64,000 bases of DNA from Octopus sinensis (lineage: Eukaryota): the NCBI RefSeq assembly GCF_006345805.1, contig NC_043008.1, forward strand, positions 6,572,001 through 6,636,000, given 5' to 3'. Of this stretch, positions 4,721-51,147 are shown in pieces. The stretch's first letter is position 1. Each line of letters opens with the position of its first letter. The position numbers were made by a program, and so were the translations under genes. The notes below the pieces were generated by a model. The model was not told where the DNA came from, made no database searches, and worked only from the letters and a program-made list of their open reading frames with translations.

Positions 4721-5201
4721 GATACATATTATATAAACAGTAATATACATATATCCATACATCCATACATATGTATGTAAGTATCACTCGGGCTCTCTCT
4801 AAATACATACATATGTATAAATCTATGTTTGTGTATATGTGTGCATTTATTATATATATATATATATAAATACATATATATATATTTGGATATGTATGTG
4901 TATATATGTTTATGTATATGTATATATGTGTATATCTGTCTATGTATGTATGTATGTATGTATGTATGTATGTATGGTATGTATGTATGTATGTATCTAT
5001 CTATCTATCCGAGAGTGTGTGTATATATGTGTGTGTATTATATTTATGAATATGTAGATTGTTTGAAGTGGTATGCAGATTTTATATGATATATTAAGAT
5101 AAATGACGGAGGAATTGGATAAAAACTATCATTTCAGCACTTTTATGCTGAAAGCACTATATAGATAATTTTCATCCAAATCCTATCATCTCCTTTATCT
5201 T

Positions 5202-5232
<31 letters not shown>

Positions 5233-5237
5233 CACAC

Positions 5238-5273
<36 letters not shown>

Positions 5274-6244
5274 GCAGAAAGAGGTAATGTGTCAGCAAGA
5301 AAGCAAAACAATGTTTTATTCAAAGTTATATCTTTACAGGTCACTTATCCAGGACTTACTTTCTTGCATTCATCAGGTGATGAAGTAGATCTTTTTTTTG
5401 TGTTTAGTTGACTAAGTGACTGTGATAGCATATCGCCAAAACATAAATTAATTAATCAAGCAACAAATAAGCACAGCAATGATAATTGCAGGCAGGAAAT
5501 GTGTGAGCGTACTTTAGACCAGGGACGTAGGTTATACCAATCAACAGATGAATACGTGAATGATAATTATTGGATATGTAAGTAGGCAATATGAATGTCA
5601 GCAGTTGATGTATTCTGGGGAATTGCACTCTTGGTGATTTCAGATATATGGGACACGTGCTAGAGTTATTATTGATGAGCTTTGGTAAACAGGAAGTGTT
5701 AGTTCTAATGGCTGTTTCAGTGTATCCATTTTTGGTGGAGTCACTTAGTGGAATATGTCTAAAAAAGCATCGATATAAGTATCACTCGTGCTCTCTTTAA
5801 ATACATACATATGTATACATCTATGTCTGTGTATATATGTGTGCATATCTATATAAATATAAGTACATATATATGGATATGTATGTGTATATATGCTTAT
5901 GTATATATGTGTATATCTGAATATATTTTGGAGTGTGTGTGTGTGTGTGTTGCCTGTGTGTGTGTTCTGGTTAGAAGAAAGATCTCTTTGGTGTGAATAC
6001 ACTTGTGATCATACACACACACACACAAATGTATGTGTATAAGTATATGTGTATGTATGTGTGTATGTATATATGTATGCAGATGTATGTACATTATATA
6101 TCTGCCTGTCTGTTTGTTTATGTGTGTGTGTCTGTCTGTCTGTCTCTGCCTAACTGTCTGTCTATCTGTCTATCTTTCTGTCCATCTGTCCATTCATCCA
6201 TCTGTCTGTCTCTCTACAAACACGATAAGCATCTAGATTTTGTT

Positions 6245-6880
6245 TACTAAATCCACTCACACAGCTTCGTTCGGCCCGGTGCTATATCTGAAGACACTTG
6301 CCAGAGGTGTAGTGCTATGGGGCTGGATCGAAGACCAGATGGTTGAAAAACGAGCTTCTTAACCACCCAGCCATGCCTGCCCCTACTGTAGATAAACAAA
6401 TCTGAAAGGTTCAGTCTACCAGTTGACAATTATTTGTATTAATATATCATTCTTATATTCTTTTATACTTCTACTTGTTTCAGTATTTTGACTGTGGCCA
6501 TGCTGGAATACTGCTTTTAGTCAAACAAACTGATCCCAGGATTTATTCTTTGTAAGCCTAGTACCTGTTCTATCAGTCTCCTTTGCCGAACCATTAAGTT
6601 ATGGGGACGTAAACACACCAACATCGGTTATCAAATGATGGTGGTGCAACAAACATAGACACACACACACACACACATGGAAAATGGACATTAAATGATG
6701 ATGATGCTGCTGCTGATATACTAAGGGCTTCTTTCAGTTTTTGTCTACCAAATCCACTCACAAGGCTTTGGTTAGCCCAATGCTATAGTAGATGACACTT
6801 GCCCAAGGTGCTACACGGTGGGTATGAACCTGAAATCTGTGTGGTTGGGAAAGAAGCATCTTAGCACACAGCCATCTATA
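6245..6880 (-). mobile_element. SINE family A, one partial and one near-full copy
   Basis: AAATCCACTCAC...GACACTTGCC core occurs twice; 3' half CAGTATTTTGACTGTGGCCATGCTGG. Confidence 0.85.
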
Positions 6881-7099
6881 CATAAACAGAAAGCAAACAA
6901 TAAACAGATATGAAAGGCTCAAGTCTAGCAAACGATTATTAATTGAACTAAAGAGCTTGTGCTGTGTGACTGGGGATTCATATTTTAACCAATTTGACCT
7001 AAATGCCTTTAATTCAGTCTGTTACTATAAACCCATGCAAAAATAACACGATCAATGTCAAAGATCAAACTAACTGATATATAATATAGAAGAAAATTT

Positions 7100-7113
7100 G
7101 TAAAATTACACAC

Positions 7114-7156
<43 letters not shown>

Positions 7157-7309
7157 TATAAAATATTATAAAATATTATAAAATATTATTTGAGACAAAA
7201 CCACTATTTTGCAAAACAAACAAGGAAAGACTTAATCAATACATAAAATTTAATAAATACATACATACATACATACATATACATACATTATATATATATA
7301 TAAACATAC

Positions 7310-7340
<31 letters not shown>

Positions 7341-7369
7341 CATACATATATATATATATACATACATAC

Positions 7370-7422
<53 letters not shown>

Positions 7423-48155: not shown

Positions 48156-48515
48156 TTACCTCCACCTTAGAGCAAAGGCAGAGGTTTTGCTTTCAGTTGT
48201 GTTTATTTGTCCGTGGACAAGATATTTCAAGAACCGCTGGATGGTTTCAGATGAAACTTTCAGGGATGTTTGGGCTCATGACTGGCACACACTGATTAGA
48301 TTTTGGCATCGATCTGGTATCGGACAAGGATTCTGGATTATTTTCCTGTGTTTTTTTTACTTAATTTCTTAGAGCGGTTGGGTTCATTTTTAGTATTCTT
48401 GTTTGTGAGAGCAATCGAGTTTATTTCAGATATTCCCATTTTAAAATCATCTCTGTCTAATTCTTGAGAGGACGTTAGTGTTGCCTTGGTGGAGGTTTGC
48501 GCTGTCTGAGTGCTC

Positions 48516-48516
<1 letters not shown>
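48156..48516 (+). mobile_element. Helentron-associated non-autonomous element (HINE/DINE-1-like)
   Basis: 5' TTACCTCCACCTT..AAGGCAGAGGT hairpin, GATGAAACTT and GATTAGATTTTGG core, 3' CTTGGTGGAGGT subterminal inverted repeat plus terminal stem-loop GCGCTGTCTGAGTGC. Confidence 0.7.
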
Positions 48517-48564
<48 letters not shown>

Positions 48565-48580
48565 CATTGTTATTATTATT

Positions 48581-48814
48581 AAGGCAGTGAGCTGGCAGAA
48601 ATGTTAGCACGCTGAGCAAAATGCTTTGCGGCACTTCATCTGTCTGCACATTTTGAGTACAAATTCTGCTGAGGTCAACTTTGCCTTTCATCCTTTCAGG
48701 GTCGATAAATGAAGTACCAGTTGTGCACTGGTGTCAATCTCATCGACTGGCCACCCCTGTCCACCAAAATTTCAAGCCTTGTGCCTAGAGTAGAAAAGAT
48801 TATTATTATTATTA

Positions 48815-48854
<40 letters not shown>

Positions 48855-49030
48855 GGAAGTGAGCTGGCAAAATCATTAGCATGCCGGGCAAAATGCTTAG
48901 CAGTATTTTGTCTGCTGCTACATTCTGAGTTCAAATTCCACTGAGGTTGATTAAATAAGTACCAGTTATACACTATGGTCAATGTAATCGACTTAATCCC
49001 TTCCCCAAAATTTAAGGCCTTGTAGAAAGA
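48581..49030 (+). mobile_element. Two tandem SINE family D copies within (TTA)n
   Basis: Heads at 48582 and 48853. Confidence 0.85.
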
Positions 49031-49039
49031 ATTATTATT

Positions 49040-49870
49040 ATTATTTGACATTTAATAACTTCAGGTAAATTTCTATTGCATCACCTGCTTGTTCTTGTTT
49101 TGTTGTTGTTGTTGTTGAGAGAGTACAAACTCTTCCTGGTTTTATATTGCACCAGGTTGTTTTGTTATGGGGTTTCGTTGCAGTCTTTTGTTGTATTAGT
49201 GTTTGTATTGTGTGTGTAATGTGAGTTGTGTTCTGTTGAGTATCCAACCCGCAAAGGACACGTTAATTTGGGGGGATATTCACTGTATAGAGTGTGTTTG
49301 TGGATTGTTTTTTATTTGTGCTTAGTGGTTAGGGCATTCGGCTCATGATTGTAAGATCGTGAGTTTGATTCTCAGTGACGCGTTGTGTCCTTGAGCAAGA
49401 CACTTTATTTCACATTGCTCCAGTCCACTCAGCTGGCAAAAATGAGTTGTACCTGTGTTTCAAAGAGCCAGCCTTGTCACACTCTGTGTCACACTGAATC
49501 TTCCTGAAAACTACGTTAGGGGTACGCATGTCTGTGGATTGTTCAGTCACTTGCATGTTAATTTCACGAGCAGGCTGTTCTGTTAATCGTATCAGTTGGG
49601 ATCCTCATTGTCGTAACCAACGGAGTGCTCCTACTACTGTTAAATCAATAGAGTCTTGCATAGGATGTGGGCTGTTCCCTAACAGGGCTATTTTTTGGAT
49701 TGTGTGTAGTGTCGAGGGTCGAAGTATAGCTTCTATGCTTTCGTTCATATGTTTTTGTTATCATATTTAACAATCCATTCATTACTGGTATTGTCATTAC
49801 TTTTATGCCTCACATCTTAGCTACTTCAGTTTTGAGGTCTTAGTACTTTGACTGTTTCTCCACTTTTTTT
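49040..49870 (-). mobile_element. R4/Dong-clade LINE 3' fragment interrupted by a family B SINE (49321-49632, plus strand)
   Basis: Minus frames read EKQSKY*DLKTEVAKM*GIKVMTIPV...LHTIQKIALLG..HIL; the 3' UTR ends in (TAA)n. Confidence 0.8.
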
Positions 49871-51037
49871 GGGGGGGGGGGGACAAAAGAAAAATGAAAA
49901 CCGAAACTCTGAAAGCTGAATTCACAAGAGATAAAAATCTATAGAATTGAGACCATGCAATTACCAACCACTCCTGGCTTACTTTGTCATTTTTTTAATC
50001 ACTTTCAGTGTAGATGTTAATTTAGGTATCAACTAATACACACTCAACAGATAATAATGTTTTTCGTAACTACTTTCCAATTTTTATACAATTAGCACTG
50101 AGCTGAAATGACAGTAAAAATGACAAAATACTCTTACCACTATTTTATTTAGCTCCTTGTCACAGAAAAATTAAACAGTTTTATTAACTTTTCAAAAGTG
50201 AAATGGCAGTTGCTTTTTTTCTTTCTTCTTTTCTTTCTTTCTTTTTTTTATTGAATAATTGAAAGAAAAGTTTCATGAGTATTGTTGGTGTGTTTTTTAT
50301 TTTTTTATTAACAATTTCTCAACTAAGAAATTTAGTGAAGAAAAGAAGCCATTAAAAAACTTAAGTTGAATTTCGTCACTAATCATATGGTATGTTTTTT
50401 AAAAAAATAGTTTTAGGAAAAAAGATTGCCTAAAGTGAAACTGTTGTGACTTCATTTTCTCTCAAATTGGAAAATATCTTTACAAATAGAAAACTCATAG
50501 TTTGCTTTCATTGAATATGTTCCTGCAGTAGTTTAGTAAAATATATTGCTGCCACTATTTACAGTAAATAACCATTTAGTAATATTTAAAACTAGCACTA
50601 ATTGGTAATGAAAAATTAATCAATTATTTATAATGATTTTTGTGATTGCAGTGGTTATTAACATCATTTGCTGCACCATAAACAATGAAGTGTCTGAGTT
50701 ATGGTGTTGAATCTACCATAGCATTATTGAATCTAAAGATTTATAGATGAAGATCTATACTGCACAATTCTGTTTAGTTGGTTCTTGATAATCATATTTT
50801 ATTTTTCATTGTTACAAAGATTTGCTTTTTCTTTAACTTATTGACAAAAAAACCCCCAAGTGATTTGAGCTAGTTAACAACTTTGACTTGTAGTAAAGAT
50901 TGTTTGCCAACATAACAACAAATGTTGCTGTAATTTAGCCCCAGGAGGCATCATCTCTGGCTAGCTATACGACACGATTTGTGTCCTTTGATTTTCGAAC
51001 AAGGGAATCTAGCACCCCCACTCAGTTCAAAACAATA

Positions 51038-51145
51038 TCTGTGAATCACGATTTCCAGGTTATTTCCTTTCATCAGCCCAGAGTAGCCTCTAGCCAAACA
51101 ATTATTCTGTGCTGATGAAGGGACAAAACCTAGATCTCACGATAC

Positions 51146-51147
<2 letters not shown>
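51038..51147. ncRNA. Divergent pair of hammerhead motifs
   Basis: Minus 51038-51082: TCTGGG-CTGATGA-AAGG AAATAA CCTG-GAAA-TCGTGA-TT-CACAGA. Plus 51106-51147: TCTGTG-CTGATGA-AGGGACAAAACCTA-GATC-TCACGA-TA-CAC (GAAA decayed). Confidence 0.65.

Follow-up and report, generated by a model that had tools for sequence, protein, structure and literature searches.

Hammerhead ribozyme families in the Octopus sinensis genome: truncated 3' ends of probable Penelope-like elements and a candidate retrozyme

Introduction

Minimal hammerhead ribozymes recur within a short stretch of the Octopus sinensis genome, often as divergent inverted pairs next to microsatellites, which raises the question of where they come from and whether the paired arrangement serves a purpose. 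The stretch (hereafter the window) comprises 64,000 nt of contig NC_043008.1 (assembly GCF_006345805.1, positions 6,572,001 to 6,636,000); it belongs to a 2.72-Gb assembly, has a GC content of 34% and is dense in microsatellites. The original prediction, made from the letters alone, placed hammerhead motifs at six main loci and two weaker sites, ascribed them to several independent lineages of Penelope-like elements (PLEs) or retrozyme-like elements, and proposed that the pairs switch cleavage off or on, possibly with the help of ADAR editing. The analysis presented here leads to a view to which we assign a probability of roughly 0.85: the six loci are 3' ends, truncated on the 5' side, of six hammerhead families, of which two (A and E) lie behind PLE reading frames and the others are likely PLE-derived, and the pairs likely arise anew with each insertion. 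The overall system has already been published (PMC4209133, PMC8557442), and the families described here are new members of it.

Six loci as ends of six dispersed families

The six main loci were found where they had been predicted. Each holds the 3' end, truncated on the 5' side, of a different dispersed family; these are named here A to F. Family A forms a divergent pair. Its main arm (12097-12400, plus strand), a Hydra-like PLE 3' end that stops at (TA)n, carries a hammerhead at 12110-12199 with helix III CAUAUG and predicted cleavage after 12193; it is about 150 nt longer than the inverted arm (11909-12063, minus), which is 5'-truncated and holds a decayed type I hammerhead (11956-12045, core A6>G). 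Family B is a solo (15444-15811, plus), a 5'-truncated copy of a 560-bp tandem unit devoid of an open reading frame (ORF); its hammerhead (15467-15528) has a pseudo-palindromic helix III with one central unpaired base, and (TA)n flanks the copy on both sides. In the family C pair, the main arm (19450-19600, plus) bears a hammerhead of the U3-A8 variant (19450-19490, helix III GCGC) and a 31-nt tail (19570-19600) not present on the inverted arm (19337-19451, minus), where the U3-A8 hammerhead (19411-19451) is decayed and the helix III palindrome is gone. Families D and E are solo 3' ends on the minus strand: D (23385-23600; hammerhead 23432-23546, with a long helix II insert) is an old copy, 71-77% identical to most of its top relatives, and E (24045-24176) has its hammerhead at 24107-24148, with helix III GUAC. 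Family F, finally, is a pair whose main arm (50892-51085, minus; hammerhead 51039-51081) has a broken helix I and whose inverted arm (51100-51147, plus; hammerhead 51107-51147) has lost GAAA and is cut short by a trinucleotide repeat. By exact anatomy, one good arm each of pairs A and C and the solos B, D and E stand as predicted, whereas the other four arms named as motifs, both those of F and the inverted ones of A and C, are homologous but broken.

Dispersed copies are numerous, with first-look candidate counts of 3637 (A), 1767 (B), 745 (C), 447 (D), 356 (E) and 1882 (F), rough lower bounds resting on 40 scored matches per search. Hammerhead positions follow the standard numbering. The family majorities have canonical cores, that of C being the U3-A8 variant, a feature beyond the original prediction, as is the tandem unit of B; the change from C3-G8 to U3-A8 is seen between families. 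Majority helix III segments are CAUAUG, GCGC, CGAUCG, GUAC and UCGCGA, with B pseudo-palindromic around one central base. The motifs of B, C, E and F have an extra base after A9 and another before G12, and the first helix II pair is G-C in A, B, D and F and U-A in C and E. An intact core is found in 26/44 copies of A, 62/68 of B, 7/12 of C, 12/22 of D, 15/22 of E and 22/28 of F; among copies, the core is conserved above its flanks in A (p 0.006) and D (p 6e-7).

The possibility that D and E are parts of one element was ruled out, as the query 23385-24176 brought up an unrelated repeat at about 23600-24030. This interval is a separate high-copy repeat lying between the two (2000 candidates, about 85% identity).

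Penelope-like reading frames behind families A and E

Many PLE frames are present in this genome: a search with the GIY-YIG domain gave 149 matches among 150 scored (5029 candidates), and two full frames bear both RVT_1 and GIY-YIG. In the commonest GIY-YIG PLE family, a U3-A8 hammerhead lies in the 3' untranslated region (UTR) at 8 of 30 loci. Families A and E stand directly behind Penelope-like endonuclease frames. For family E, a decayed GIY-YIG frame lies about 420 nt upstream on the same strand at locus L137, and a homologous hammerhead follows the stop codon by about 500 nt at L203, at L201 (775 aa, RVT_1 plus GIY-YIG) and at five more loci. Across 12 sequences of family E, PLE-linked relatives included, 94.9% of cells are paired and two pairs changed on both sides, a result seen in 3/500 shuffles; one of these is a clean compensatory A-U to G-C change in helix I and the other is of the CpG type.

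Family A extends upstream into an endonuclease C-terminus different from that of E, and its end lies directly behind an endonuclease-like frame in 26 of the 30 loci found with that C-terminal piece. A protein atlas lookup of the piece gave a best score of 0.88 and no usable name. The family fits the Hydra clade of PLEs as judged from sequence, since it has CxxC-E and CxH motifs and (TA)n targets. CxH[WR] was present in 20 of 30 loci and CxxC..E in 25, some of them from microsatellite frames. The agreement with the clade as described (PMC8557442) covers two motifs, CxxC-E and CxH, placed around the catalytic E and N, and the lack of CCHH; the CxCx5C linker, RWK and DKT, in contrast, were not found convincingly, their motif matches occurring mostly in unrelated frames of decayed copies. 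Family E comes closest to the Neptune/Penelope type, and so, likely, does C. Families B, C, D and F are likely PLE-derived as well.

Several other PLEs were encountered along the way. In a subfamily with an intact 775-aa frame (L201:2699-2771, L215, L216, L219), four of five aligned copies carry U4>C in the hammerhead core, with the remainder of the motif intact; the variant may be tolerated, or the ribozyme may be dead in a lineage that was active recently. L202 (G000:C3:65732500-65740000) and its relatives make up a PLE family that is very young and has several open frames of 781 aa and many equal-scoring GIY-YIG matches; in the relatives, the 3' UTR bears a U3-A8 hammerhead with helix III CAUG. 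More hammerhead families occur in L218 and L223-L279; L218 has a further divergent pair, and L272 has two copies. Matches to PLE frames at L008, L035, L073, L079, L115, L140 and L285 (tblastn and profile) were read as separate insertions and set aside, and the GIY-YIG match at L181 presumably reflects a host SLX1-type exon rather than a PLE.

Family B, an ORF-less tandem unit and candidate retrozyme

Copies of family B are 95-100% identical. Where no (TA)n follows the 3' end, the sequence runs on for 195 nt and then returns to the same ribozyme, and a closed 560-bp unit is found in 50 loci examined, several of them overlapping. Seven regions chosen for tandem matches hold 3-9 pieces each and up to seven intact ribozymes, with arrays of up to about eight units. 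The unit has a GC content of 35%, a longest ATG frame of 49 aa, no PLE profile match within it, and a stable circular fold (z -8.8). Insertions have their 3' limit about 285 nt 3' of the predicted cleavage site, and no pile-up of 5' ends is seen at that site (2 of 58 within 5 nt). The 5' ends thus ignore it, and the template would therefore be uncleaved, multimeric or circular.

These features resemble those of non-LTR retrozymes (LTR, long terminal repeat; PMC7229834; preprint 10.64898/2026.07.22.740005), which likewise are ORF-less head-to-tail units with a type I hammerhead each, dimeric to multimeric, low in GC, strongly structured and likely mobilised by PLEs. The family B unit is longer than the typical ~300 bp (Cervera and de la Pena 2020, PMC7229834) and within the range of 51-972 given in the preprint (Li et al. 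2026), and unlike those elements it shows the full PLE insertion anatomy, with inversions, tail and TA targets, while being known here from sequence and contigs. Family B may therefore be regarded as a young non-LTR retrozyme, a new and testable candidate, for which L202-type PLEs are a candidate helper.

Seven sequencing runs were examined, of which six are presumed to be RNA and one is DNA-like, the run types being guesses. Both X7 and X8, samples from one study, yielded a single 597-nt contig each (depth 163 and 77), and the two contigs are different permutations, letter for letter, of the same 566-567-nt cycle; other family B contigs in X7 have a depth of 2-6. This dominant variant has four or five private letters, found in none of about 100-140 genomic copies, which may reflect another population or an unsampled locus.

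Two accounts of these contigs have to be weighed. A linear transcript read through a genomic array would produce them if the closed contigs were collapsed tandem repeats: a de Bruijn graph would likewise turn arrays of three to about eight units into a cycle, contigs show neither ends nor strand, and the closed unit appears in two of the six presumed RNA runs, both of one study. Such read-through is a serious contender, at somewhat less than even odds. Against it speak the single deep contigs that start at different points of one cycle and tower over the shallow remainder, the contrast with family F, which yields hundreds of tangled contigs in the same runs, the intact ribozyme in every unit combined with a very stable circular fold, and the abundance of circles that coral, mussel and axolotl make from type I hammerheads repeated in tandem (PMC7229834). 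Circular RNA is thus the likely product of family B, judging from its sequence and contigs.

In run X5, 18 A-to-G changes are listed for depth-3 contigs of family B, all on the ribozyme strand; 11 surround the ribozyme and seven lie downstream. The affected columns hold a nearly invariant A in 118-155 genomic copies, and all have a 5' U or A neighbour (p ~3e-5), as ADAR prefers. Loop II and the additional A that follows A9 are among the sites changed, with no catalytic A among those listed. The excess is confined to this one of the six presumed RNA runs and is absent from X1, X6, X7 and X8: X6, of the same study as X5, has 15 T>C vs 15 A>G among the changes listed, and in X10 a longer stretch shows 16 T>C vs 9 A>G. 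Editing of the ADAR type in family B RNA is hinted at by a single run without matched DNA.

It is tempting to combine these observations into one scenario, in which family B is an active cephalopod retrozyme: the 566-nt ribozyme-processed circle is dominated by a variant unmatched among the genomic copies sampled, a PLE enzyme still inserts it into (TA)n, and ADAR hyper-edits it across the ribozyme when an inverted insertion is transcribed. Taken as a whole this conjunction is rather unlikely. If true, it would make the family a natural test bed for ADAR restraint of viroid-like RNA in the animals with the most editing. In any case, family B offers a usable system, being young and ORF-less, with arrays of intact ribozymes and the full PLE insertion anatomy; it could serve to test in vivo cleavage of PLE-type minimal hammerheads, a circular template for longer-than-unit insertions, and the action of ADAR.

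Weighing a Penelope-like origin for all six families

Several results weigh against a common PLE-derived origin. The covariation count of family E amounts to one inherited change plus changes of the CpG type. For family A, both Pfam matches (GIY-YIG, E 0.006; RVT_1, E 0.022) fall under the cut-off, and pairwise comparison of its frame with a Neptune-like frame was not significant. Family C shows weak nucleotide similarity to the 3' ends of four PLE loci (E 3e-7 to 5e-4), a profile search of 180 loci tied no reading frame to D or F, and no autonomous partner of B was found beyond the L202-type candidate. Only 1 of 32 ends of family F has (TA)3 nearby, so that (TA)n targeting is not seen in this family. 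Core conservation among copies is not significant in B, C, E and F, and the top BLAST copies form a biased sample. Finally, none of the six window motifs adopts the hammerhead in silico as a monomer (z -1.5 to +0.5), which is expected of dimer-dependent motifs, yet lends no support either.

The unlinked families D and F, and perhaps B, could instead be hammerhead-bearing elements resembling short interspersed nuclear elements (SINEs) or satellites and moved by non-PLE machinery. The missing link to an ORF in D and F and the indifference of F to (TA)n are what one would then see. Such an origin is nevertheless improbable: D and F share 5' truncation, divergent inverted copies and one-sided extension with A, C and E, and the failure to find frames comes from about 20 short top matches examined per family, with Penelope/Poseidon-type frames scarce among the queries. 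The proposal of several independent PLE or retrozyme-like lineages is upheld by the six families, the ORF links of A and E and the ORF-less tandem unit of B; the tie to reverse transcriptase (RT)/GIY-YIG frames is weak for C, and none was found for D and F.

As for transcripts of family F, hundreds of contigs from four presumed RNA runs match L065:2583-2924, a pattern that read-through of dispersed copies in large number would give; the unique flanks of L065 had little or no coverage in these runs and were left aside as evidence.

Inverted pairs and insertion anatomy

The three head-to-head pairs are true inverted repeats and divergent, as predicted, with arm identities of 131/152 (A), 98/118 (C) and 26/32 (F). 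Pairing extends to the solo families: among the loci listed for solo queries, a divergent partner is present in 9/20 for B, 3/20 for D and 6/20 for E, counts that take in the window copy and some places listed twice. The pair rates of A, C and F are inflated because the queries were the pairs themselves. Close pairs are all divergent. Their spacing differs at nearly every locus, ranging over 6-769 nt (A), 84-690 nt (B) and 44-395 nt (D), and 3' ends are bimodal, in keeping with a tail on one arm only: 26 and 37 of 76 in A, 27 and 34 of 74 in B, and 10 and 13 of 24 in C. A (TA)3 run lies within 30 nt of the end in 29/40 copies of A, 22/55 of B, 9/14 of C, 12/21 of D and 13/22 of E, against a background of 8%; the predicted abutment on (TA)n is thus a property of families A to E but not of F.

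The divergent pairs are likely by-products of PLE insertion that arise anew each time, because their variable junctions, unequal arm ends and neutral-looking decay match the published anatomy of PLE inverted truncation. That anatomy includes an inverted 5'-truncated copy, a tail and a (TA)n bias (PMC8557442), and minimal hammerhead pairs on opposite strands, 100-700 bp apart, have been described (PMC4209133). This part of the original prediction, which had noted the inverted termini of PLEs, is supported.

The same prediction had also envisaged a switch of cleavage. Read as a selected device, it would have the antisense arm shut the ribozyme down until ADAR edits the duplex and cleavage resumes. 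It is true that pair RNAs of A and C form long duplexes on either strand (-193/-180 kcal/mol for A, -120/-111 kcal/mol for C), and the X5 changes described above also speak for it. However, the duplex of pair A has -193 kcal/mol vs -82 with the ribozyme forced, so that folding the ribozyme costs about 110 kcal/mol, and a single sense ribozyme cannot dimerise. Arms are 81-86% identical to each other, the same as to dispersed copies, and junctions differ at every locus. On the ribozyme strand of genomic copies, none of the six families has an excess of A-to-G changes (lowest p 0.048 in six tests), while the one presumed RNA run with an excess may simply follow the general rule that inverted repeats are edited (PMC5625713). 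With four of six paired arms broken in the window and the pair RNA forming a long duplex, a selected on/off switch is unsupported; we consider it very improbable and retain insertion by-products as the explanation of the pairs.

Motif frequency in the window and the genome

A strict descriptor of the minimal type I hammerhead was used, with an exact core (CUGANGA or UUGANAA, GAAA, UH), helix I of at least 4 bp, helix II of at least 3 bp and a self-complementary helix III. The window holds five strict matches (cores at 12116+, 15473+, 19455+, 23541- and 24142-) vs a mean of 0.10 in 100 block-wise dinucleotide shuffles, none of which reaches five. Sixty evenly spaced 10-kb regions hold 12 vs 0.9 shuffled (10 shuffles); strict motifs thus stand well above the shuffled controls proposed in the original prediction, in the window and beyond. 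With one mismatch permitted per core half, the window has 30 matches vs 32.4 shuffled, a number reached in 32/40 shuffles, and weak sites need independent support because the loosened descriptor works at chance level. That the motifs are chance matches in AT-rich, microsatellite-rich DNA may hold for the loose matches and possibly for the 5290 site, and Rfam lists no hammerhead at the B site, but for the six main loci it is refuted by the strict excess and by family majorities, in which canonical cores and palindromes reappear at positions decayed in the window copy.

Extrapolated from the 60 regions, the density is about 18 strict motifs per Mb, which scales to about 50,000 (24,000-91,000) genome-wide. 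Compared with this average, the window is somewhat enriched (p 0.02, with no correction for its selection), and (TA)n runs are 1.6 times commoner in it. Rfam gave no hammerhead at 15444-15560 (E<=10) and none among the 150 of 440 window matches listed, those listed being microsatellite-driven miRNA matches. The genome would thus carry tens of thousands of minimal hammerheads missed by Rfam. For comparison, 235 Rfam hammerhead matches are on record for the giant squid (PMC6962438), and loads of 2,000-9,000 were reported with other descriptors (PMC4209133).

Proposed mechanism and relation to known systems

The following steps draw on published work for dimer cleavage, circle ligation and copying by the PLE RT/GIY-YIG protein (PMC4209133, PMC7229834, review PMC6765202). 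In a master element, head-to-tail repeats would place two hammerheads on one transcript, where palindromic helix III segments could pair into a dimer and excise a unit-length RNA, possibly ligated into a circle. The PLE RT/GIY-YIG protein would then nick (TA)n, in families A-E, and prime at a fixed site 3' of the ribozyme. Copying would run backwards from there and in most cases end or change template early, so that a short 3' end with the ribozyme is left; frequently the outcome would be an inverted truncated copy in front, with the tail on one arm only. In family B, the ORF would have been lost or never present, and the 560-bp unit would be copied in trans from circular or multimeric RNA. 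Solo and paired copies are likely dead ends, because a solo has no partner in cis and the long duplex of a pair buries the motif; both decay.

Minimal hammerheads in PLE repeats, with a U3-A8 variant and weak dimer cleavage, were described by Cervera and de la Pena (2014; PMC4209133). The motifs reported here agree with these in the type I core, the palindromic miniature helix III, the extra base after A9 (in B, C, E and F) and the U3-A8 variant, as well as in the presence of many unrelated families per genome, mostly solos with some opposite-strand pairs and few tied to full elements. They differ in the extra base before G12 in B, C, E and F, which forms a 1x1 mismatch at the foot of helix II, and in the 50-80-nt helix II inserts of A and D; O. 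sinensis is not among the genomes named in the accessible part of that paper. With the endonuclease-positive (EN+) PLEs of Craig et al. (2021; PMC8557442), families A and E, and likely C, share the C-terminal GIY-YIG after RT, 5' truncation, partial tandems, the inverted truncated copy, the one-sided tail, the hammerhead in the terminal repeat and (TA)n targeting, a bias reported there for Neptune, Hydra and Naiad. The tails, in contrast, are longer, about 150 nt in A and about 85 nt in B, than the 30-40 bp described there. The main text of PMC7229834, as far as accessible, does not mention octopus or cephalopods, nor does the accessible text of preprint 10.64898/2026.07.22.740005 mention octopus or molluscs, and no report of an octopus or cephalopod hammerhead or retrozyme was found, although subscription papers, Repbase and supplements may list such families.

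Other features of the window

The two weaker sites fared less well than the main loci. The one predicted at 5095 belongs to a collapsed inverted pair (5056-5200) of a seventh, older family related to C, in which helix II is deleted and no complete ribozyme is left; its 3' tail matches family C, the supposed core lies in the antisense of that tail, and relatives at three other places retain decayed hammerheads. The 5290 site (5279-5382, minus), single-copy in the genome, combines CUGAUGA with a long hairpin, without GAAA or helix I, and is possibly an old relic or a chance match.

Further repeats and frames complete the picture. An open frame of 180 aa at 33105-33647 (plus) contains a DDE_3 (Tc1/mariner-type) transposase domain (E 1.7e-12). 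A dispersed repeat of about 430 nt with an internal CA/TA tract, which we take to be SINE-like, has many copies in the window, among them 3582-3920, 6451-6875, 9410-9830, 12930-13340, 15186-15441, 15854-16037, 41179-41594, 58660-59084 and 61433-61621; the family B copy sits within the (TA)n of one of these copies. Minisatellites occupy 1684-1951 (66 bp), 27703-27898 (22 bp), 51682-52120 (16/84 bp) and 55961-56105 (42 bp), and an inverted repeat with 85% identity spans 56666-56852 and 57049-57235.

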